Shown here: positions 50,221 to 61,208 of the stretch, piece after piece
Numbering within the stretch: the first letter of the stretch is position 1
Layout of the letters: each line of letters starts with the position of its first letter
Source: Escherichia coli
Lineage (GTDB): Bacteria > Pseudomonadota > Gammaproteobacteria > Enterobacterales > Enterobacteriaceae
Assembly (NCBI RefSeq): GCF_029227855.1
Contig: NZ_CP074356.1
Reading direction: 5' to 3' (one strand)
Length of the DNA: 64,000 bases
The notes under the pieces: generated by a model
What the model was told of the DNA's origin: nothing
The model's input: the letters and a program-made list of their open reading frames with translations, nothing else
The model's database searches: none
Made by a program: the position numbers and the translations under genes

Positions 50221-52179
50221 TTATCCAATATTGTTTTTATAGTCAATGGTTTTTTTTATTAAGTTATAAGAAGCGATAGGGTTTCGTTTAACGCTTTTGA
50301 TAAAGACAAACGCCAAAGCTGTTTTCTTATTCTCTTGAGATAACATGATATGATTGGAGTTTAATAGACCAATAGGAGATTCAATATTTTTAGTTTTAAA
50401 AATACTGTTGTGAGTAAAATATAAGTTACATTCTTTTTTTGCGAACTTTTCGAACCCCAAATCACTTAATAATATTATGTCTGAATAGTCTTCAGTATAT
50501 ACTAAATTTGGATTGATAAGGTTGTATTCTTTATTCGGGTATTTAGAAACTAAAGTGTCTAGCAATAATTTGTCTGAGACAATATCTATACAATCAAAAC
50601 AATCGGTGTTGTCTAAGAGTGTATATAATTTATGTTGATTTATGTCTTTATACCCTTTCGCCCAGATAAGTAATCTTTTTGATAATTTATCCTTTAGTCT
50701 ATTGTTTCCTGCTTTTACTCTACGATAAAGTAAATCAGAATTCTCTCTGAATCCAAGAGGGTCTAATATATAATCATTCGAATCAATTGGTGACTTGAAA
50801 CTATAAAGAATTGGTTTGTTTGCTTTTTGTCTTATTCTATATAGATCATTTATGTGCAAGCTTAATGATTCATCAAAAATAATAAGTTCTGGGTTTTCTT
50901 TTGAAATGATTTTCAAAATGTCATCTTGAGCGAGATTTTGCGGGAGAATATGTTCACAAAATTGACTTACTTCTGAACCATATCGACCTGAATAAATAAA
51001 GACAGGGATAATATTACTATCATTATATAAATTAAAATAGAACTTAATTGCATGCACAGTGGATGCAGCAATTAACACTTTTACAGGGGTTATCGGTAAT
51101 GAAATATCCTGTTCATAAATCTCGTATGGGATATAATCCCTTTTATCATGTTCTGATTTAAATGTTATTCCTCTATATATTTTTTTCTCTAATCCCGTAA
51201 TAAATCTTTCAACGTGTCGCAACCCTTTTAAAAAATCCTTTCTTAATATGTTACATGCTGTTTCAAAACAGCTTGGGTTTACTGGTTGATTAATAAACTC
51301 AATGATTTCTTTTGCGAAGGTTGATATATCCCCATAAGGAACAACCCTAATAATTTCAGGAGGGGCTATTTCTGAGTTTCCGCCAACATCCCAACAGACT
51401 ACAGGTGTATATGTCGATAAAGACTCCAAAATAGCCATTGAGCAGTTTTCAAATTTGCTTAGAGATATAGCTACCTTAGCTCGGGATAGAAAATTAAATT
51501 TTTCATTTCCCTCAATATGTTCAAGGAAAGAAACATTAGAATACTCTTTAGATAAAGTGATTTTTTTCTCTTGTTTTCCGACAATAAAAATACTTAGATC
51601 ATTAGGTAAATTTTTTATGAGTGGTTCAATAAATTCAATTCCCTTAAGGTTGTTAAATCTGCTGAAGAAAATTACATCTATGTCTTTTTCAATTACACTT
51701 TTAAGAAGGTCTTTTTTTAGTGTGATTGGATTTTTATATACATGTATATTTGTAATGTCTAAATCATCTTTAAGTAGTTCTAACATGCCGTAAGATGGAG
51801 AGGAGACGGCTTTGGCTTTATAAATCGCTCTGCATTCATCTGAAAAACGAGCCTCATCAGGCTCTTCATTGATGATTCTTTTATATAGATGAAAGGGGCA
51901 ATGTAATCTGATATGTATATTTGCATCTTTTGGGAATAAAAGAGTTGGAGATTGTGATTCTGCTGCTTCAATTATTGTAGTGTGGTTTATTGCTTTTTTA
52001 TTTAAATTTAGATACGTGAATTTTCTAAAGTCTGGCATCGACATATCGTAAGGCTTTACAAACTCTTTATATGGGAAATCATAAACTTCATTGACTGTTT
52101 TAATATAATTAGTCACACCATTGCTGAATTCTGGATTATAGATAAAGTGATTGATGGATATTCTTTCAAGAGATTTCAT
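50221..52179 (-). CDS. Capsule region-2 protein (652 aa), probable glycosyltransferase (GT-B/GT4-like N-terminal part)
   Basis: Segment ...AISLSKFENCSMAILESLSTYTPVVCWDVGGNSEI resembles the GT4 E-x7-E/nucleotide-sugar binding region; AT-rich; between kpsT and the 800-aa gene. Confidence 0.6.
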   Translation of the reverse strand: MKSLERISINHFIYNPEFSNGVTNYIKTVNEVYDFPYKEFVKPYDMSMPDFRKFTYLNLNKKAINHTTIIEAAESQSPTLLFPKDANIHIRLHCPFHLYKRIINEEPDEARFSDECRAIYKAKAVSSPSYGMLELLKDDLDITNIHVYKNPITLKKDLLKSVIEKDIDVIFFSRFNNLKGIEFIEPLIKNLPNDLSIFIVGKQEKKITLSKEYSNVSFLEHIEGNEKFNFLSRAKVAISLSKFENCSMAILESLSTYTPVVCWDVGGNSEIAPPEIIRVVPYGDISTFAKEIIEFINQPVNPSCFETACNILRKDFLKGLRHVERFITGLEKKIYRGITFKSEHDKRDYIPYEIYEQDISLPITPVKVLIAASTVHAIKFYFNLYNDSNIIPVFIYSGRYGSEVSQFCEHILPQNLAQDDILKIISKENPELIIFDESLSLHINDLYRIRQKANKPILYSFKSPIDSNDYILDPLGFRENSDLLYRRVKAGNNRLKDKLSKRLLIWAKGYKDINQHKLYTLLDNTDCFDCIDIVSDKLLLDTLVSKYPNKEYNLINPNLVYTEDYSDIILLSDLGFEKFAKKECNLYFTHNSIFKTKNIESPIGLLNSNHIMLSQENKKTALAFVFIKSVKRNPIASYNLIKKTIDYKNNIG

Positions 52180-52372: not shown

Positions 52373-53062
52373 TTACAGGTTAAATTCAGGGAGACATATG
52401 TTTTTTTCATCATGTCTATATTTGTCTATGGCAAGTGATATATCCTTGTAATATAAGGTGTGATTATTCCTCCCAAAGTAAATGGCCTCATCGCAATATT
52501 CTTTTAATAAGTTAAGACTATGAGAGACTATCAAAAAATTTGATTTTTCATGTTTTTCCCTAAATAAGGAAAAACATTTCTCTTTAAATCTGGCGTCTCC
52601 CACAGCCATAACTTCATCAACAAGATAATAATCAAAATCAAATGCCATGCTGAGTCCAAATCCTAACCGAGAACGCATGCCAGAAGAATATGTTTTTATT
52701 GGCATGTCAAAGTATTTCCCCAGTTCGGAAAATTCCTCTACAAATGAAACCTTATCTTGCAGCTCATCTTTTTTAGCATAAAGTCTTGCAACAAATTTAA
52801 CATTTTCACGCCCTGTCAGACTGCCTTGAAAACCACCAGCTAAACCTACTGGCCATGAAATGGTTTGATCAGTAAGTATTCTCCCCTTATCTGGTCGATC
52901 TATACCACCTATTATTCGAAGCAATGTTGATTTACCTGCACCATTGCGTCCAACTAAAGCAACACTTTTTCCTGTGGGTAATTCAATATTTAAATCTTTA
53001 AAAACATAATGTCTTCCTTTAGGTGTACGATATGATTTGGTGAGATTCTCAATACGTATCAT
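52373..53062 (-). CDS. kpsT: Capsule export ABC transporter ATP-binding protein KpsT (229 aa)
   Basis: Track ORF trimmed to MIRIENLTKSYRT; Walker A GRNGAGKST; ABC signature YSSGMRSRL; Walker B YYLVDE. Confidence 0.9.
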   Translation of the reverse strand: MIRIENLTKSYRTPKGRHYVFKDLNIELPTGKSVALVGRNGAGKSTLLRIIGGIDRPDKGRILTDQTISWPVGLAGGFQGSLTGRENVKFVARLYAKKDELQDKVSFVEEFSELGKYFDMPIKTYSSGMRSRLGFGLSMAFDFDYYLVDEVMAVGDARFKEKCFSLFREKHEKSNFLIVSHSLNLLKEYCDEAIYFGRNNHTLYYKDISLAIDKYRHDEKNICLPEFNL

Positions 53063-53838
53063 GAGGTTAACATAGCCTCCTCTTTGAAACGGTAAAGGCA
53101 AAGTCCTACGAAAAACACTACTAAAGAAAAAAATGCAAGATAATTAATACTAACACCTTCACTTATATATCCCGGTACAACAGATTGGCGACTTAACTCC
53201 ACAACATGTACTAAAGGATTCCATAATAAATATCCCCAGTATATTTTAGGGATAGAATGGAGAGGAAACATTACGCAAGATATGAAATAAAGAGGTTTAA
53301 TCATTATGGGCAAAAATTTTTCCGTTTCTGGGAAAGTTTTACCTAACACCATGAAAATTAAACCTATACCAAGAGAAAATATAATAAGTAATCCCCAAGT
53401 TGCAGCGAGTATAATGATGTTTAAAAATGAAAATTCTTCTCCAAGTAGACCTACAATTGACATGAGGATTATGTAAACACCACTATATATTAATGCTTCA
53501 AGAAGGGTTCGTGAAATTATGGTGTCAATAGGCTTTATAGGCCTGTAATTAAATAAGCCCTGATTAGAGTTTATTGCTCCAATAGAGCGGACAGCAATAT
53601 TACTAAAAAGAAAATAAGGGATAAGTCCGTTTAGAAGAAACACTGGGAACGATATATCTGGCATAGTTCTATGCATAATATATCCAAATATACCAATCAA
53701 GATTATCAAATGTGCTGTTGGCTCAAGGAGTGCCCATAAATACCCCAGACGATATTTACCAAAACGAGTCTTAATTTCACGAAGAAATAAAGCTTTTACT
53801 GCTGCTATTTGAACTTCAAAACCACTTCTTCTAGCCAT
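53059..53838 (-). CDS. kpsM: Capsule export ABC-2 permease KpsM (259 aa)
   Basis: Track ORF trimmed to MARRSGFEVQ; ABC-2 polytopic permease; immediately upstream of kpsT with overlapping stop/start. Confidence 0.9.
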   Translation of the reverse strand: MARRSGFEVQIAAVKALFLREIKTRFGKYRLGYLWALLEPTAHLIILIGIFGYIMHRTMPDISFPVFLLNGLIPYFLFSNIAVRSIGAINSNQGLFNYRPIKPIDTIISRTLLEALIYSGVYIILMSIVGLLGEEFSFLNIIILAATWGLLIIFSLGIGLIFMVLGKTFPETEKFLPIMIKPLYFISCVMFPLHSIPKIYWGYLLWNPLVHVVELSRQSVVPGYISEGVSINYLAFFSLVVFFVGLCLYRFKEEAMLTS

Positions 53839-53865: not shown

Positions 53866-53877
53866 TACGCTACCGCC
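53866..53877 (-). promoter_or_regulatory. ops (GGCGGTAG) element in kpsM leader; RfaH antitermination site
   Basis: Plus-strand ctaccgcc (reverse complement GGCGGTAGCGT) about 30 nt upstream of the kpsM ATG on the coding strand. Confidence 0.5.
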
Positions 53878-54247: not shown

Positions 54248-55480
54248 TTATTTATTGTTCAATGCAGAATTGGTTTCTAATGTAATAGTGTCGCAGTGTA
54301 ACTGTGACTCCCCATAATAAACCCCATTAACCTGCGTCTTCACCAATAAATACCCCCGAAACTTCTTAAACAGTTTCATATCCGGTTTAAAATCGGCCTG
54401 CCAGAACTGGTGCAAATGCCCTTGATACGTCAAGCCTTTGATGTCGTACAGGGCATTGCCCATCACTTTGAGTGGTTTGTTATGAATCAGCGCAGAGATC
54501 CCCGCCGTACTGTTAATCGTCACTACCGCTTTTGCATGGCGTAATAATTCCGGCATCGGGAGATCGTGCACATAAATGACTCGCTCATCTAAGCCATATT
54601 CCTTACTCAATCGCTTAATTAATGGTCGATAGAGTCTGTGACCACGATCCATCGGATGATGTTTGATCACCAAATAACTTTCTTTCGGCGCTTTACGTGA
54701 AAATGAGTACATGACTTCATTAATATAGTCACGCACATCGTTATAATTACTGTGGTTACGAATCTGGCTATCGTTATATACCTGCAAAACGGCAAGATAA
54801 TAACGCTGGTCCAGCTCGTTCATTAACCTCGGTAATACCTTACGCTGTGTTACCTTGTAAAGTTGCTTGCGCCAGTATGCACGAACCCAGCAACGAGCCT
54901 CATACCAGGGGGAAAACGATTTATGGTGGCGGTAGCGAGGGAACTCATGGCGGTAATGCCAGCCCATCAGGTAATACCACATCGCATGACCTATACGTTT
55001 CATCGTTGAAGGTTTAAAGTTCTCAACGTGCGGCGTAGGCATATCTGGTAACTTACGATAAAAATCCGGATCGCGCGGTAGCGATGAATATGCGTTTACT
55101 CCGCCTTCTTCAACGGTAATAAATTGCGGGCGTAAATATCCTTCCTCAAATGCCAGAAAGCGGATCCCTTTCGACTTTGCCCAACGTTTTGCTTCTTTGT
55201 GCAATGGGCGGCAGTCACCAAAGCAGAGGATGGTATCAAAGTCATATTGCCGGTGGAGATCCCGTAACCATCCGGGGAACTCTTTCGGCGTTTGGTAGTA
55301 AGCCAGGTATTGTCGATGGCGGCAGTAAAAACGATCCCCACCGTTGAATACAACATTCACAGCGTTACGTCCTAATGACTCTAACCATTCGGCGACGTCA
55401 TTGAAAAAAGGTCCCATCGGCCCCTGCAATAGCAGATATTTTTTACCGGATAATAAAACGGTTAGAGCATTACCTTGCAT
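54248..55480 (-). CDS. kpsS: Capsule biosynthesis protein KpsS (410 aa)
   Basis: N-terminus MQGNALTVLLSGKKYLLLQGPMGPFF; Capsule_synth-type protein downstream of kpsC. Confidence 0.88.
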   Translation of the reverse strand: MQGNALTVLLSGKKYLLLQGPMGPFFNDVAEWLESLGRNAVNVVFNGGDRFYCRHRQYLAYYQTPKEFPGWLRDLHRQYDFDTILCFGDCRPLHKEAKRWAKSKGIRFLAFEEGYLRPQFITVEEGGVNAYSSLPRDPDFYRKLPDMPTPHVENFKPSTMKRIGHAMWYYLMGWHYRHEFPRYRHHKSFSPWYEARCWVRAYWRKQLYKVTQRKVLPRLMNELDQRYYLAVLQVYNDSQIRNHSNYNDVRDYINEVMYSFSRKAPKESYLVIKHHPMDRGHRLYRPLIKRLSKEYGLDERVIYVHDLPMPELLRHAKAVVTINSTAGISALIHNKPLKVMGNALYDIKGLTYQGHLHQFWQADFKPDMKLFKKFRGYLLVKTQVNGVYYGESQLHCDTITLETNSALNNK

Positions 55481-55514
55481 AAATAATTTCCGTAATAGTC
55501 AACTATGAAATTGT

Positions 55515-57542
55515 TTAGCCAAATCTGACCTTGCAGAACATAATTAATTTGCGGTAATAACGTATTACTCGCCCCGCTTTTTTTCTGGTAATAAACAACG
55601 GCTTGCGCGGCGTCTGGATCAAATATTCCGCCGCCTCTTCAACCGTAATAGGTTGTAGCCGTGTTGGGTGGATATAGGTTGGATAAACAATCAACGCCTG
55701 ATAGATCAAATCTGCTAACGTTAATTTTTGCTCGCGGCGCGGGCAGTGATGTTCATCAACGGTTAAACCCCAACCGGCATAGAAGGGCAGGCCGTAACAA
55801 TGAACTTGCTTGCCATGTAATAACGCTTCAAACCCGGACAATGATGTCATGGTGTGCACTTCATCTGCGCGCTGAATGCATTGAATAATATCTGCGTCCA
55901 GTGCCTGATAATCAGCGAGTTCAGCAATTAGTTCTGCCGGAATGTCGCCCTTGCGATTCCCCACCAGTACATCCGGGTGCGGTTTATAAACAATGTAGGC
56001 GTGCGGATTACGCTCGCGTACTGTGCGTAATAACTCAAGGTTGCTCTTAATCGAGACAGTGCCTGTTTTAATAGAGGCATCGTCCTCTACCTGACCCGGC
56101 ACCAGGATAACTTTTTTATCTTTGGCTTCGGCTGGTAGAGAGAAATTGGCTCCCAGGTTGTACTTACTCAGTTTGCTTTCAACCAGTCGCTGGCGTAATT
56201 TTTCAGCTCGCATCTGCTGCGCCAGCGTTAACTGGCTGTGATTAAGCAGGACTTCCAGGTCGCTGGGGCGCGTGGCGTCATAGTAGATCCCGCGTTTATC
56301 CAGTACCAACGATAGCGGCGGCAGCAGGTCAGAGCCAAGTCCGGATGAACGCAGAAAACCATCTTCCATTCGCCATAACGGCAGTGATTTTTGTTGCGCT
56401 TCGGCTAGCCATTGCTGTTCTCCCTTTACACCCCATACCACGCAAGCCGTCGCCGCAGTACAGCGGCGTGAATAACTCAGTCTGTTTGTTGCGGTACGCA
56501 AGAAAGGTTTCAGGATTGCCGACTTCCACAGCGTTAAGCCTGGCGACCATAAATAGCCATTACGCTGTTGCTGATGGTTGCGCTGTAATTGCAGCCATTG
56601 CAGTACGGTAAACAGATCGCTTGCGGCCCCCGTGAGCGGGTCGATATAGCGACAGTAACGCAGGTATGCAGCGGCAAAAAGTTCTTCCAGCGTGGCAGAA
56701 CCGCGTCGGGCAGATAACAAAGCGGACTGCGGATGGCGATCGTCGGTTAAGCCCCAGCCTGCATACCAGGGCTGGCCGAAACATGTTACTGGTTTTCCTG
56801 CCAGCAAGGCTTCAAAGCCGTATTGGGATGTCACGACGTAAACCCGGGAAACGTGTCGCAACAGCGACTGCGGGCTGACATTCTCGGCAATCAAACGTAC
56901 TCGTTGCGTGGCGCGCAGATCAGCGAAATAACCTGTTTTCTTTCCTTCCAGGACATCCGGATGCACCTTCACCCAAATTTCGGCTTGAGGATTTTCCGCC
57001 ATCGCGGCTTCCAGCATGGCAGCAAACTCATGCGGGCCAGCATTGCCATACGTCACTGACATATCATTAAATGTCTGATCGACAACCAGAACGATGTCTG
57101 AACGTTCTGACTCATCAGCCACAAACGCAGGTGCCAGGTTATATTTCGACAAATCCCCGGTCACGATGGTGTGCATCGCTTCTCTGGCCAGGCTTATCAG
57201 AGCTGTATTTCCGGCTTTATCCTGTACCAGTTTCTCCAGTGCTGAAGGCTTGCTGGCATCGTAGTAAATGCCACAATCATCCACCACCAGAGAAAGCGGC
57301 GGCTCGCCATTGACGCCAAGATCCAGCGAACGCACAAATCCATCTTCCAGACGAATGACGGGTTTTCCCGCTGCTTTGGCGATGGCGACTGGTTTCGCCG
57401 CGCTGGGACGATGTCCCCACACGGCGATAGCATCAACTTCTTGTGGAACAGGGCGCAGCAGAGAAAGTTTCTGGCACGGTTGCGCCAGAAATTTCTCCAG
57501 ATGCGGAATACGCCAGATACCGGACGAGAAAATGCCAATCAT
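55515..57542 (-). CDS. kpsC: Capsule biosynthesis protein KpsC (675 aa), beta-Kdo transferase
   Basis: Duplicated domains each with HPDV and FYAGWGLT motifs; 675 aa; overlaps kpsU stop. Confidence 0.92.
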
Positions 57543-58279
57543 GCGTTTTCAGCCAGTTCCTGTGCCATCAGGGCGCGCACTTTTTCCAGGCATGCTGGGG
57601 TGTCGACGCCCGGACCGGTTGCGGCAACCTCAAATGTGCGGATGTTGATCCCCGCGCTCATCAACCGCAGCTGCTCCAGTGATTCTGCCTGCTCCGGCAT
57701 GGACTCCGGTAACTGGCTGTAGTTTTGCAGCACATCACGACGATAAGCATAAATACCGACGTGTTTCAGGTAGCGCGCTTTTTCAGCATTACGCGGATAC
57801 GGAATCGGCGAACGGCTGAAATAAAGTGCATCCTGGCGGGTATTCACAACCACTTTTACCGTGCTTGGCTCGGCCGCTTCTTCGGCAGAAATCGCGTGGC
57901 ATAGCGTTGCCACTGGCAACGCGGGATCGTCACGCATTCCTTGTAGCAGCGTTTCTACATCCCGCGGGCGAATCATTGGTTCATCGCCCTGCAAGTTAAT
58001 GTAGATATCTGCTTCCACCGTATGCATTACCTCGACCAGCCGATCGGTGCCGGATTCATGATCGTTGCGCGTCATGATGGCTTTCCCGCCAAATGCCTGC
58101 ACGGCCTTTTCAACACGCGGGTCGTCTGTTGCCACCCAAACTTCCGCAACGCCCGCCACCTGTAACGCACGCTCGTAAACATGCTGGATCATCGGTTTAC
58201 CAACAATATCGAGCAGTGGCTTACCCGGCAGACGCGATGAGCCATAACGAGCCGGGATGACAATAACAGCTTTGCTCAT
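57539..58279 (-). CDS. kpsU: CMP-Kdo synthetase KpsU (246 aa)
   Basis: N-terminus [22 protein letters not shown] typical of KdsB/KpsU. Confidence 0.92.
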
Positions 58280-58288
58280 TTCAACTCC

Positions 58289-59965
58289 TTACAAAGACAG
58301 AATCACTTTTGCACCCACCGCCAGCTGATAGAGGATGGTGGAAATACCACGGGTAACTTCAATATTTTTCGATTCATATTTCGGTAGAACCATAATCTCA
58401 TCGCCCGGCTTGAGTGAATCCACGTCTTCTGCGTTGACGGCTGCACCGTTCTGACGAATGACGATAATTCTGGCGTTACCCGATTTCTGCGTCAGGCCAC
58501 CACATTTCTCGATGTAATCCTCGGTGGTCATACCCTTCTGCCAGCTCACCGCGTTCGGGAACAGCACTTCGCCATGAACCATAACCAGCGATGTTTTCTC
58601 CGGAATATTGATGACGTCGCCATCTTCAAGCAGAACAGAATCAATATTGGATTCGTTGAGGATCACTTCACCTTTCGGAACCACGGTGCGTGCTTTCGCC
58701 ACAAAGCGGCTGATCAGTTGTGCTTCCTGCATTCGCAGGCTGGCTTCTTCTTTGGTGGATGACTGGGCAGAAAGTGAGGCTTCCTCCAGTTTTTGCAGCG
58801 AGAGATTCAGCATCTCTTTCTGACGCTGAGCTACTGATGGGCGATAAAGCTGAACCGCGTTCATCTGCGACATGCTGTTCGGGCGGACTTTTTCCAGAAC
58901 CGCACGCATAGTGGAACCATAAGGCAGTACCATGGCATGTTCACCGGAGTGCGCGCCTTCAACCCGCACCTGAATGGTGCCGGCATAGCGGTCAGTGCTC
59001 ACGATTAAGGTATCGCCATTTTGCAACATACGGCCTGGTGCAGAACTGATCGGATAGTATTCGCTGCGTTTTTGCAGCCCCTGTTTACGCATAATCGTAA
59101 TGTGAGTCGCGCCAGGCTTAGGGCGCGCCCAGCTCAACGCTTCCGTTACGGGAATGCTGCTTTCGCGGAACTCAAAGTCGTAGCTGTTAAAGACATCGCC
59201 CTGAACGCTGAAAGTATGCTGACGCGGCCCGACGATGATGGTGTCACCATCGGCGAACTGCGAAAGCCCCAGTTTGCCGTTCAGCAGGAAGTCGTACAGG
59301 TTGACGTTGGAGCGCACGCGGTTACCGCGCTTGACCACAATATCAACGTAACTTCCGCGCTCTGGATCAACGCCGCCAGCCTTGATCAGATAATTGAGTA
59401 ACGAATCAGACGTCACACCGCCATACAGACCAGGATTACGCACAAATCCGGTCACGTACACTTTTACTGGCTGCGCCTGTAATAAGGAGGCGTAGACGTT
59501 GACGTTGGACTGGTACACTTCCTTCACTTTTGATGTAACCAGAGTGTTCAACTGACTATTGCTAACCCCGGCAACTTTCACCGGACCAACGTTTGGCAGA
59601 AAAATATTACCTTTGGGATCAATCTGTAATGCACCATCAAAGGTGAACGCACCCCACAAGCGAACCTGAATGCTATCACCCGGATTCAGAATATAGTCAG
59701 GGTTGAATCCTACCGTCGCACCGCTATCCGCGCTGGTGCCGTTGAAAAGTTGAGCACCAAACATACGGCTCATTACCACCGGCGGTGCGGGGGGTGGAGT
59801 ATTGTCGAAGCCGCTCATGTTTTGCGTATCCGACTGTTGCCCGTTCAGAATACCGGTAAGCGGCGCGGCTCCTGTCAGGTTTGGGTCAGCGTTAATATCA
59901 ATGGCCGCGCTGGCCTGCGCCGCGTGACAGGCGGCAATCAGTAAAATTGATTTAAATAATTTCAT
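58289..59965 (-). CDS. kpsD: Capsule export outer-membrane/periplasmic protein KpsD (558 aa)
   Basis: Signal peptide MKLFKSILLIAACHAAQASA; size; region-1 order. Confidence 0.9.
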   Translation of the reverse strand: MKLFKSILLIAACHAAQASAAIDINADPNLTGAAPLTGILNGQQSDTQNMSGFDNTPPPAPPVVMSRMFGAQLFNGTSADSGATVGFNPDYILNPGDSIQVRLWGAFTFDGALQIDPKGNIFLPNVGPVKVAGVSNSQLNTLVTSKVKEVYQSNVNVYASLLQAQPVKVYVTGFVRNPGLYGGVTSDSLLNYLIKAGGVDPERGSYVDIVVKRGNRVRSNVNLYDFLLNGKLGLSQFADGDTIIVGPRQHTFSVQGDVFNSYDFEFRESSIPVTEALSWARPKPGATHITIMRKQGLQKRSEYYPISSAPGRMLQNGDTLIVSTDRYAGTIQVRVEGAHSGEHAMVLPYGSTMRAVLEKVRPNSMSQMNAVQLYRPSVAQRQKEMLNLSLQKLEEASLSAQSSTKEEASLRMQEAQLISRFVAKARTVVPKGEVILNESNIDSVLLEDGDVINIPEKTSLVMVHGEVLFPNAVSWQKGMTTEDYIEKCGGLTQKSGNARIIVIRQNGAAVNAEDVDSLKPGDEIMVLPKYESKNIEVTRGISTILYQLAVGAKVILSL

Positions 59966-59988
59966 CACAAACTCATTCAGCGACAGCG

Positions 59989-61137
59989 TTAGTCTCGGTG
60001 ATCTTCAATAACAGCCAGCAACAGTTTCAGGGTGCCGAACAGCAGGCAGCACACCAGTAACCAGCAGGCGATCAAATAAGGGATATTTGGAAAAGACGAT
60101 TCCTGCGGCAACTGTGGCGAACTGATCACTGACAGCACCTTGAGCTTACGAGCCGCTTCTACACGGGTCTTTTCAATGGAGGTCAGGGTCAGTTTGTACA
60201 GCTCGGTGTTGAACTCTACTTTTGATTTGATTTCTTCAAAATCCACCGCCATACGGTTTAGCTTGTCACCCTGCGGCGCTGTGATTTTGCTTTTTTCTTC
60301 GTCAATTTGTGCCTGCAATGACTGAATCGCATTACGCGCACTCACAACTTGCGGGGCGTCCTCACGCAGATACGTCAGCAAGTTCCGCAGGTCCGCTTCC
60401 ATCTGGATCTTCTGGCCCATCAGCGTATTCACTAACGTGCTCGCCGCCTGTGCCTGTGCCTGTGGATCCAGAACGTTGTTGTTGTCTTGATAAGAGAGCA
60501 ATTCCGCTTTGCTGGCGTCCAGACGCTGGCGTGCCTTTTCCATCTCCGTTTCTGCAAAGGCAAGCTGGTCACGCGCGATGCGATGTGACATCTCATTGAT
60601 AAAGCGCTCTGACTCTTTCAGCACGGTTTGGTTAAACTTAAGCGCAAATTCCGGGCTAAAGCCCTGCGTCTGAATATTCAGTAATCCGGTTTTATCGTCA
60701 TACGAGACGTTGATACGGTCCTTGTAGTACTTCAGGAAGCCTTCTGCGGTTTCATCCTTGCTAAGATGATTAAGAAAATCGAGCCCGCTGTGGCTAAACG
60801 CTTCACGAAAATTTAGTTGCTTATCCAGCGCCGCCAGCATATCCGGCGAGTTGATGTACTCTTTCAGATACAACGCATCTTCTGCGGAACTGGGGTTAGA
60901 GGCACCCAGAAGCAGACCAAAATTCAGGCTGCCGCTGTTTAAATCATCCGAGCGTTTAATGGCGACTTTCGACTCGCTCATATAGCGAGGCTGGCTGAAG
61001 ATAGCCAGATAGATCAGCAGCACCGCCATCGGTGCCAGAATGATGATTTTCGCCAGGTGTTTTTGGATATCTGCCAGTGAGATGGCAGACAGACGAGCAC
61101 GCATCCAGGATACGGCAGACTTCACTTTTATCAACAT
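59989..61137 (-). CDS. kpsE: Capsule export inner-membrane protein KpsE (382 aa)
   Basis: N-terminal TM, long coiled-coil periplasmic region, C-terminal TM; 382 aa. Confidence 0.9.
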   Translation of the reverse strand: MLIKVKSAVSWMRARLSAISLADIQKHLAKIIILAPMAVLLIYLAIFSQPRYMSESKVAIKRSDDLNSGSLNFGLLLGASNPSSAEDALYLKEYINSPDMLAALDKQLNFREAFSHSGLDFLNHLSKDETAEGFLKYYKDRINVSYDDKTGLLNIQTQGFSPEFALKFNQTVLKESERFINEMSHRIARDQLAFAETEMEKARQRLDASKAELLSYQDNNNVLDPQAQAQAASTLVNTLMGQKIQMEADLRNLLTYLREDAPQVVSARNAIQSLQAQIDEEKSKITAPQGDKLNRMAVDFEEIKSKVEFNTELYKLTLTSIEKTRVEAARKLKVLSVISSPQLPQESSFPNIPYLIACWLLVCCLLFGTLKLLLAVIEDHRD

Positions 61138-61208
61138 GTAACGATTATCAAAGTTTCAGTGGGGCGCAAACTCAATGAGAGACTAACCTCTCGCACCCCG
61201 TTGCTTAA

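Follow-up and report, generated by a model that had tools for sequence, protein, structure and literature searches.

A capsule-locus GT4 protein of Escherichia coli with a diverged, putatively non-catalytic GT107-type module

What is the second half of a capsule glycosyltransferase for, when no domain model recognizes it? This question is raised by an AT-rich gene in the kps capsule locus of a 64,000-nucleotide stretch of Escherichia coli chromosomal DNA (contig NZ_CP074356.1 of assembly GCF_029227855.1; the whole stretch is called the window here). The gene, at 50221–52179 on the minus strand, encodes a protein of 652 residues, ORF652, which RefSeq names 'glycosyltransferase family 4 protein' (WP_000838177.1). 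An earlier sequence-only reading of the window held that only the N-terminal part of the protein resembles a family 4 glycosyltransferase (GT4) and that about 300 C-terminal residues, in which it recognized no motif, could form a second catalytic or chain-length-determining domain. [quoted passage not shown] On balance, we favour the view that ORF652 is a monofunctional GT4 hexosyltransferase that carries a GT107-derived module for scaffolding or docking and leaves Kdo transfer to a partner.

The gene and its GT4 module

The open reading frame (ORF) begins with ATG, spans 1959 nt and has a good Shine–Dalgarno sequence, AGGAG, 12 nt upstream of its start. The GC content of this region is 0.29–0.32, within a block of about 9 kb at approximately 0.30, compared with about 0.55 in the flanks. 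Of 5426 complete E. coli genomes, only 4 encode the protein at 100% identity. It is not a chance ORF, because it stays open for 1959 nt at 30% GC and has 25 full-length homologues in other bacteria, at 31–50% identity.

The N-terminal half (residues 1–345; 51145–52179, minus strand) looks like a retaining GT-B enzyme of family GT4, both in its conserved features and in its predicted fold. The only Pfam matches in the protein, PF00534 (Glycos_transf_1; 53 bits, cut-off 26.4) and PF13692 (Glyco_trans_1_4; 52.1 bits, cut-off 27), both cover residues 164–299 (E = 4e-14), which bears out the sequence-only reading as to where the GT4 likeness lies. In the alignment of ORF652 with its 25 homologues, E244 of the EX7E motif (FENCSMAILE) is invariant and E252 is at least 90% conserved; R174, K179, G180, HCP 93–95 and SSPS 126–129 are invariant as well. 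A Foldseek search with the full-length model returned GlgM, BshA, WaaG, MshA, PimB', TarM and sucrose-phosphate synthase, with E values of 1e-9 to 1e-7 and target-normalized TM-scores of 0.55–0.72. The dbCAN-sub subfamily of the protein is GT4_e1638 (PMC13171606, Supplementary Table 4). To judge from its sequence, this half is most likely active as a retaining GT4 hexosyltransferase.

Fold and ancestry of the C-terminal half

Residues ~330–652 gave no match in Pfam, NCBIfam or a PDB sequence search, in keeping with the missing motif of the sequence-only reading. A weak 'B12-binding' match (E = 0.06) was discarded, as it reflects only a Rossmann-like strand–helix pattern. A word-indexed homologue search with the C-terminal half alone returned nothing, not even the parent protein, which marks a limitation of the index and not an absence of homologues; negatives from such a search are untrustworthy for low-complexity domains encoded in AT-rich DNA. 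Relatives were recovered instead by a full-length query and by an exhaustive profile search.

The full-length query yielded 25 further proteins of 640–780 residues with the same architecture. Some have named sources, among them Aeromonas, Vibrio cholerae, Ignatzschineria and Paraglaciecola; all others are metagenomic. Together with ORF652 they form the family of 26 considered here. Their C-terminal half keeps a length of about 300 residues, with 271–322 in 24 of the 26 members. The other two (P0022 and P0025; 779–780 residues) carry an extra C-terminal tail of about 110 residues made of tetratricopeptide repeats (TPR), reminiscent of the TPR region of the neighbouring protein ORF800, described below, and of TPR domains in other capsule polymerases. 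A second group, of ~700–840 residues, has only the N-terminal half in common with the family; its C-terminal half carries the Pfam domain Capsule_synth (PF05159, KpsC/KpsS family, GT107).

AlphaFold2 (AF2) modelling of the C-terminal half alone, from 23 sequences, gave an alternating β/α, two-lobed topology with a predicted local distance difference test score (pLDDT) of 93.2 and a predicted TM-score (pTM) of 0.88. The half thus folds by itself in the model, which disposes of a single domain followed by linker, the outcome that the sequence-only reading had named as fatal to its proposal; a disordered linker is ruled out by the models. The full-length model reaches a pLDDT of 89 and a pTM of 0.88, and the two modules are therefore predicted to sit in a fixed mutual arrangement.

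For the ancestry of the C-terminal half, fold alone was not taken as decisive; profile homology was. In HHalign, the profile of the C-terminal halves aligned over 302 columns with the C-terminal halves of the GT4–Capsule_synth fusions (98.4% probability, E = 4e-14), and it also aligned with a GT107 alignment anchored on the N-terminal module of the window's own KpsC (95.1%, E = 3e-8). When 1.84 billion representative proteins were searched exhaustively with the profile in HMMER, only 27 matched. Beyond the family itself, these were mainly GT4–Capsule_synth proteins (P0035, 5e-14; P0034, 1.5e-6; also P0066 and P0068, assigned by Pfam), the remainder being a few fragments and one unrelated immunoglobulin-repeat protein (P0061). 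A stand-alone fragment resembling the C-terminal half also exists (P0060). PF05159 itself did not match the C-terminal half of ORF652 even at E ≤ 1, and no PF05159 match is on record for P0002–P0026. TagF-like and Stealth-like identities were considered and rejected, as neither had sequence or profile support and the top profile matches were GT107 modules. On the basis of this profile homology, the C-terminal half (residues 346–652; 50224–51144, minus strand) is classified as a diverged GT107-type module with a predicted GT-B-like fold.

Loss of the catalytic motifs

Does this module still transfer Kdo? The closest characterized families are KpsC/KpsS (GT107), the N-domain of WbbB (GT99) and KrkA (GT140), for which a double-displacement mechanism has been established (PMC10148158, PMC9587256, PMC12887879). 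These families of retaining β-Kdo transferases show mutually negligible sequence similarity, and the mechanism is common to them; it employs the Asp nucleophile and the Gln of a QxxxD motif, an HP dipeptide at the phosphate of cytidine monophosphate (CMP), a Glu base and a Tyr/Lys of a helical subdomain (PMC10148158, PMC12887879). Numbered on the KpsC of the window, the catalytic residues are E66 ('LEDGF'), Y93, K133/Y134, Q156–D160 and H194–P195; the published 'His94' is evidently His194.

We compared these positions in 24 live modules, comprising KpsC-N, KpsC-C, KpsS and ORF800-N of the window and 20 fusions of the second group. Q156, D160, H194 and P195 are kept in all 24, and E66 and Y93 in 23. 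By contrast, the columns of R45, E66, Y93, Q156, D160, H194 and P195 are variable across the 26 C-terminal halves of the family, in which the catalytic Gln occurs in no member, the Asp in 3, the His in 1 and the Glu in 5. In ORF652, Q156 is replaced by K508 (S, N, D, K, P and others across the family), H194/P195 by L538/L539, E66 by F461 and Y93 by I471, and D160 corresponds to D512, an Asp found in 3 of the 26 members. A deletion in the family removes the K133/Y134 segment, part of the helical subdomain in which the Kdo adduct is held. An alignment-free scan found no positional pair of QxxxD and HP in any of the 26 members; the E. coli protein has neither motif, and the dipeptide HP is absent from its C-terminal half.

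Lacking the nucleophilic Asp, the Gln, the HP dipeptide, the basic Glu and the helical subdomain, the C-terminal half cannot follow the double-displacement mechanism of GT99, GT107 and GT140, and a module without these defining features is not to be filed as a Kdo transferase. The pattern indicates, with high confidence, a GT107-derived pseudo-glycosyltransferase that is catalytically dead. The second catalytic domain envisaged by the sequence-only reading is therefore not borne out: the half does descend from a catalytic module, but QxxxD, HP and the Glu base are absent or variable and almost no column is fixed. Chain handling, including an effect on chain length, is a possible form of a non-catalytic role.

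The conservation of the two halves is strikingly unequal. Across the 26 full-length members, 57 of ~340 columns are invariant in the N-terminal half but only 3 of ~300 in the C-terminal half, and mean pairwise identity is 51% in the former and 21% in the latter. The invariant C-terminal residues are P365, S481 and K597, with D473 and G476 nearly so, and two motif remnants can be discerned, 'DxxGFxxxS' (equivalent to 'YYDxxxPS' of KpsC) and 'SxxxNKNI'. These figures bear on two other explanations of the module. The first is that the C-terminal half is still an active second glycosyltransferase, or another transferase, with a non-canonical active site, so that ORF652 would be bifunctional. A predicted GT-B-like fold with two Rossmann lobes and the presence of the invariant or nearly invariant residues just named are what such an enzyme would show, and β-Kdo transferases are very divergent, as GT99, GT107 and GT140 illustrate. 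However, all three known families and all 24 live relatives have QxxxD and HP, which none of the 26 members has, and the subdomain that would hold the Kdo adduct has been deleted. Three invariant columns in ~300, set against 57 in 340, is not the pattern of an enzyme, and in every locus examined a neighbouring gene supplies a Kdo transferase. We regard this explanation as very unlikely.

The second is that the half is a relic without a function of its own, kept only because the GT4 module depends on it structurally. Its very low sequence conservation and the rigid packing predicted by the whole-chain pTM of 0.88 are consistent with this view. So are stand-alone N-terminal modules of ~365 residues (P0040–P0054), from which it follows that GT4 chemistry as such does not need the C-terminal half. 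Against it, the length of about 300 residues is kept and the ORFs remain intact down to 9–20% identity, a confident AF2 model was obtained from as few as 23 sequences, the motifs DxxGFxxxS and SxxxNKNI are maintained, and some members have added a TPR tail. Together, these features argue for continued selection beyond mere tolerance, and we give a pure relic very little credence.

A GT29-like partner that probably replaces the live module

The gene directly following ORF652 on the minus strand (47812–50214) encodes ORF800, an 800-residue protein with a GT107 module (residues ~80–335), a TPR region (~428–564) and a GT29-like domain (~565–800). Its GT107 module is live by motifs, with QVEED, HP, EDGF and SKYN all present, and ORF800 is predicted to be the partner from which Kdo transfer comes. 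The donors of GT29-like enzymes are CMP-ulosonic acids. For K15, a sialyltransferase-like α-Kdo transferase has been predicted (PMC7387560).

A GT29-like gene directly adjoins the family gene in all seven contexts that we inspected (the window, L002/L003, L004/L005, L006, L007, L008 and L009), which come from the window, two metagenome contigs, V. cholerae, Aeromonas salmonicida, Aeromonas veronii, Ignatzschineria and Paraglaciecola. The partner takes two forms. It is either a GT29-like protein alone, of 459–583 residues, or a longer protein of 780–806 residues, built like ORF800, in which a live GT107 module and a TPR region precede the GT29-like domain. The V. cholerae pair consists of a 662-residue family protein and a 459-residue partner. 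Adjacency of the ORF800 type is conserved in L002, L003, L006 and L007, and two metagenome contigs carry the same kpsM–kpsT–653–804–epimerase cassette, in which the numbers give the protein lengths.

The closest relatives of ORF652 outside the family are the fusions of GT4 with a live GT107 module (PF00534 + PF05159, ~700–840 residues), which are putative single-protein hexose–β-Kdo capsule polymerases; A. veronii P0034, Vibrio europaeus P0032 and E. coli K118_12 are examples. Their N-terminal half is 34–41% identical to that of ORF652, including a 'YKG(I/L)' motif at the junction, the order of modules is the same and they also lie in kps-type loci. In contrast to ORF652, which has lost every catalytic motif and matches no hidden Markov model in its second half, the fusions retain these motifs and match Capsule_synth. 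The two groups also differ in their neighbours. In all three fusion contexts examined (L010, L011 and L012), no GT29-like gene was found and the fusion is the only recognizable glycosyltransferase of its serotype-specific region, whereas the family always has a GT29-like neighbour. The exchange can be followed within A. veronii, in which L007 and L010 have the same flanks (kpsM, T, E, D, F ... kdsA, kdsB, kpsC, kpsS, pagP) and a swapped cassette. One cassette encodes an 806-residue GT107 + GT29 protein and a 657-residue protein with a GT4 module and a dead GT107 module; the other encodes a 753-residue live GT4–GT107 protein and a 251-residue protein with no assigned function.

Proposed function

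GtfA and GtfB, which form the O-GlcNAc transferase of streptococcal serine-rich adhesins, pair a catalytic GT4-type GT-B subunit with a non-catalytic GT-B partner that serves in substrate binding or stabilization. This is the nearest functional analogy to what we propose for ORF652, in which an active GT4 module would likewise be joined to a non-catalytic GT-B module. GtfB differs from the C-terminal half of ORF652 in being a separate polypeptide, in acting on a protein acceptor and in being unrelated to Kdo transferases.

ORF652 would have descended from bifunctional GT4–GT107 capsule polymerases. Kdo transfer would then have moved from the GT107 module in cis to a GT29-like enzyme, after which the GT107 module decayed catalytically and was nevertheless kept. 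This shift is the simplest reading of the distribution of GT29-like neighbours, which accompany the family in 7 of 7 contexts and the live fusions in 0 of 3. At present, we infer that the GT4 module transfers an α-hexose onto a Kdo-containing acceptor. Since a GalE-like epimerase is encoded in the cassette itself, the hexose is probably galactose (Gal) or N-acetylgalactosamine (GalNAc). ORF800, with its live GT107 module and its GT29-like domain, would perform Kdo transfer in trans, and the dead module, rigidly packed, would most likely act as a scaffold for docking the partner enzyme, the Kdo-terminated chain or both, coupling the GT4 step to the addition of Kdo.

This proposal, which we consider probable, has several points against it. 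KrkA recruits its general base from a different element, which indicates that Kdo transferases can do so (PMC12887879), and an unconventional active site around P365, S481 and K597 is conceivable. The very low conservation of the C-terminal half speaks against a precise, universal ligand site. Lastly, a homologous cassette is associated with a Kdo homopolymer in capsule type K6, considered next, which argues against a simple hexose–Kdo copolymer and gives no clear place to the GT4 module or GalE.

Capsule types K126, K6 and K111

The sequence-only reading had called for a comparison with typed capsule loci, and this comparison placed the gene directly. The four serotype-specific ORFs of the window are K126_9 to K126_12 of a published catalogue, with an exact match of lengths and domain coordinates (PMC13171606, Supplementary Tables 3 and 4). 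The K126 set consists of a 652-residue GT4 protein (ORF652, K126_9), an 800-residue protein with PF05159 (96–332), TPR and GT29 (ORF800, K126_10), a 342-residue GalE (K126_11) and a 193-residue acetyltransferase of the left-handed β-helix (LbH) type (K126_12). In the CAZy table of this study, K126_9 is listed as GT4 only. The gene is thus already catalogued; the pseudo-GT107 identity of its C-terminal half and the complementary distribution with GT29-like partners are new. We found no published description of either, in a survey that did not include a comparison with the 29 'GT99/GT107-like' domains of PMC13171606.

Two other types have related proteins. K6_7 (655 residues) is 41% identical to ORF652 and lies in the same three-gene cassette, with a GT107 + TPR + GT29 protein (K6_8/K6_9 alongside) and GalE. 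Subfamily GT4_e1638, that of ORF652, also includes K111_9. Unlike in ORF652, its GT4 module forms one chain of 1089 residues with a GT29-like domain, a fusion that counts in favour of the function proposed above. In the PMC13171606 tables consulted, the C-terminal halves of K6_7, K6_8, K6_9 and K111_9 are unannotated. A search with the GT29-like domain of ORF800 for further GT4–X–GT29 fusions like K111_9 returned only short GT29-like proteins.

The K6 type strain, which has the homologous cassette, gave species of a Kdo homopolymer in mass spectrometry with matrix-assisted laser desorption/ionization (MALDI), and the authors read the dual GT29–GT107 ORF of K6 as transferring Kdo, possibly into a homopolymer (PMC13171606). 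This observation bears most directly on a further explanation, namely that ORF652 acts once per chain as a transition, or priming, transferase. The dead KpsC-like module would read the end of the poly-β-Kdo linker built by KpsS and KpsC, the GT4 module would add a single Gal or GalNAc that primes or caps polymerization, and the K126/K6 polymer would be essentially poly-Kdo made by ORF800. ORF652, K6_7 and the relatives in Vibrio, Aeromonas and Ignatzschineria would then join the linker to a (poly-)Kdo capsule made by GT29-like enzymes. The presence of a GT4 enzyme and of GalE would thereby be explained in a strain for which MALDI showed only Kdo-homopolymer species and no hexose was reported. 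Transition transferases are known in other ABC-transporter (ATP-binding cassette) capsule systems (PMC11666461), and the strict pairing with a GT29-like gene fits equally well. However, all these bacteria have a chemically identical linker, and its reader should be conserved, whereas the C-terminal half has 3 invariant columns and 21% identity. Moreover, the acceptor of the ancestral live module would have been hexose-terminated and not poly-Kdo, the K6 authors themselves treat the K6 structure as unknown, and to keep a special epimerase for a single residue in each chain, although possible, would be uneconomical. We therefore hold a transition transferase to be a possible but rather unlikely explanation, and prefer a GT4 hexosyltransferase with a dead scaffold or docking module.

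These assignments have a practical consequence. When capsule loci are annotated from structure, 'GT99/GT107-like' folds are now taken to be Kdo transferases (PMC13171606). The C-terminal half of ORF652 has the ancestry of GT107, and by prediction a fold of this kind, without any catalytic motif, and with such modules in play, calls made at the level of the fold can yield too many Kdo linkages and lead predictions of unknown K-antigen structures astray. In evolutionary terms, a live GT4–GT107 polymerase appears to have been replaced by a GT4 protein with a dead GT107 module and a GT29-like partner, a swap seen between the same flanks in A. veronii. ORF652 is also a candidate for the unexplained GT4/GalE role in the group of K6 and K126, with its possible poly-Kdo polymer, and for the step from linker to polymer in E. 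coli group 2-type capsules. Were the latter to hold, a catalytic module would have been recycled into one for acceptor recognition.

The capsule locus and its surroundings

On the minus strand, the genes run in the order kpsF-E-D-U-C-S, kpsM–kpsT, ORF652, ORF800 and the GalE-like gene, followed by the acetyltransferase gene on the plus strand and the gsp operon. Region 1 (kpsS, kpsC, kpsU, kpsD, kpsE and kpsF; 54248–62192, minus strand) serves the synthesis of the lipid-linked poly-β-Kdo linker and export. The kpsM-like gene for an ABC-2 permease (53059–53838, minus strand) is followed by an AT-rich kpsT-like gene for the ABC transporter ATPase (52373–53062, minus strand), directly upstream of ORF652. 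This layout is atypical, as kpsM–kpsT immediately follows kpsS in the same orientation and the gsp-proximal end is taken up by region 2. The label 'region 2' given to the gene by the sequence-only reading holds in that ORF652 is serotype-specific, with the correction that the locus is atypical.

An ops element, GGCGGTAG (53870–53877, minus strand), lies ~32 nt upstream of kpsM and is a candidate RfaH site. One match of this type per window is expected by chance; a position upstream of kpsM is that expected for region 3 of kps loci. KL112 of ST131 has a comparable gene arrangement, which is also common to other atypical K-loci (bioRxiv 10.64898/2025.12.15.689991). From the position of the element, RfaH-dependent read-through into ORF652 and ORF800 seems to be retained here, unlike what has been reported for KL112.

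The UDP-hexose 4-epimerase of the GalE type (46772–47800, minus strand) is the probable supplier of UDP-Gal or UDP-GalNAc (UDP, uridine diphosphate) to the GT4 module. One segment of the enzyme reads '...GDVAECWSTP...', with a Cys at what we take to be the position of the Tyr299 gatekeeper of E. coli GalE. This residue suggests that the enzyme can also interconvert UDP-N-acetylglucosamine and UDP-GalNAc. The last of the four serotype-specific genes encodes a hexapeptide-repeat O-acetyltransferase (46102–46683, plus strand).

Between gspM/yghD and the acetyltransferase gene lies an AT-rich, unannotated spacer of 965 bp (45137–46101). At 91% conservation, it recurs in 12 other complete E. coli genomes, in which region 2 differs but has the same atypical orientation. 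In one of these genomes, MS14384 (L013), the spacer is followed by acyltransferase, IS3 fragment, CDP-glycerol transferase, kpsT and kpsM. The spacer may be a recombination boundary or a regulatory element of this class of loci. At the other end of the locus, just beyond kpsF, an IS110-family transposase fragment and a tRNA-Phe gene are found at 63003–63459 (RefSeq annotation of the identical region of MRSN346647); this is where kps islands are usually inserted, next to a tRNA gene.

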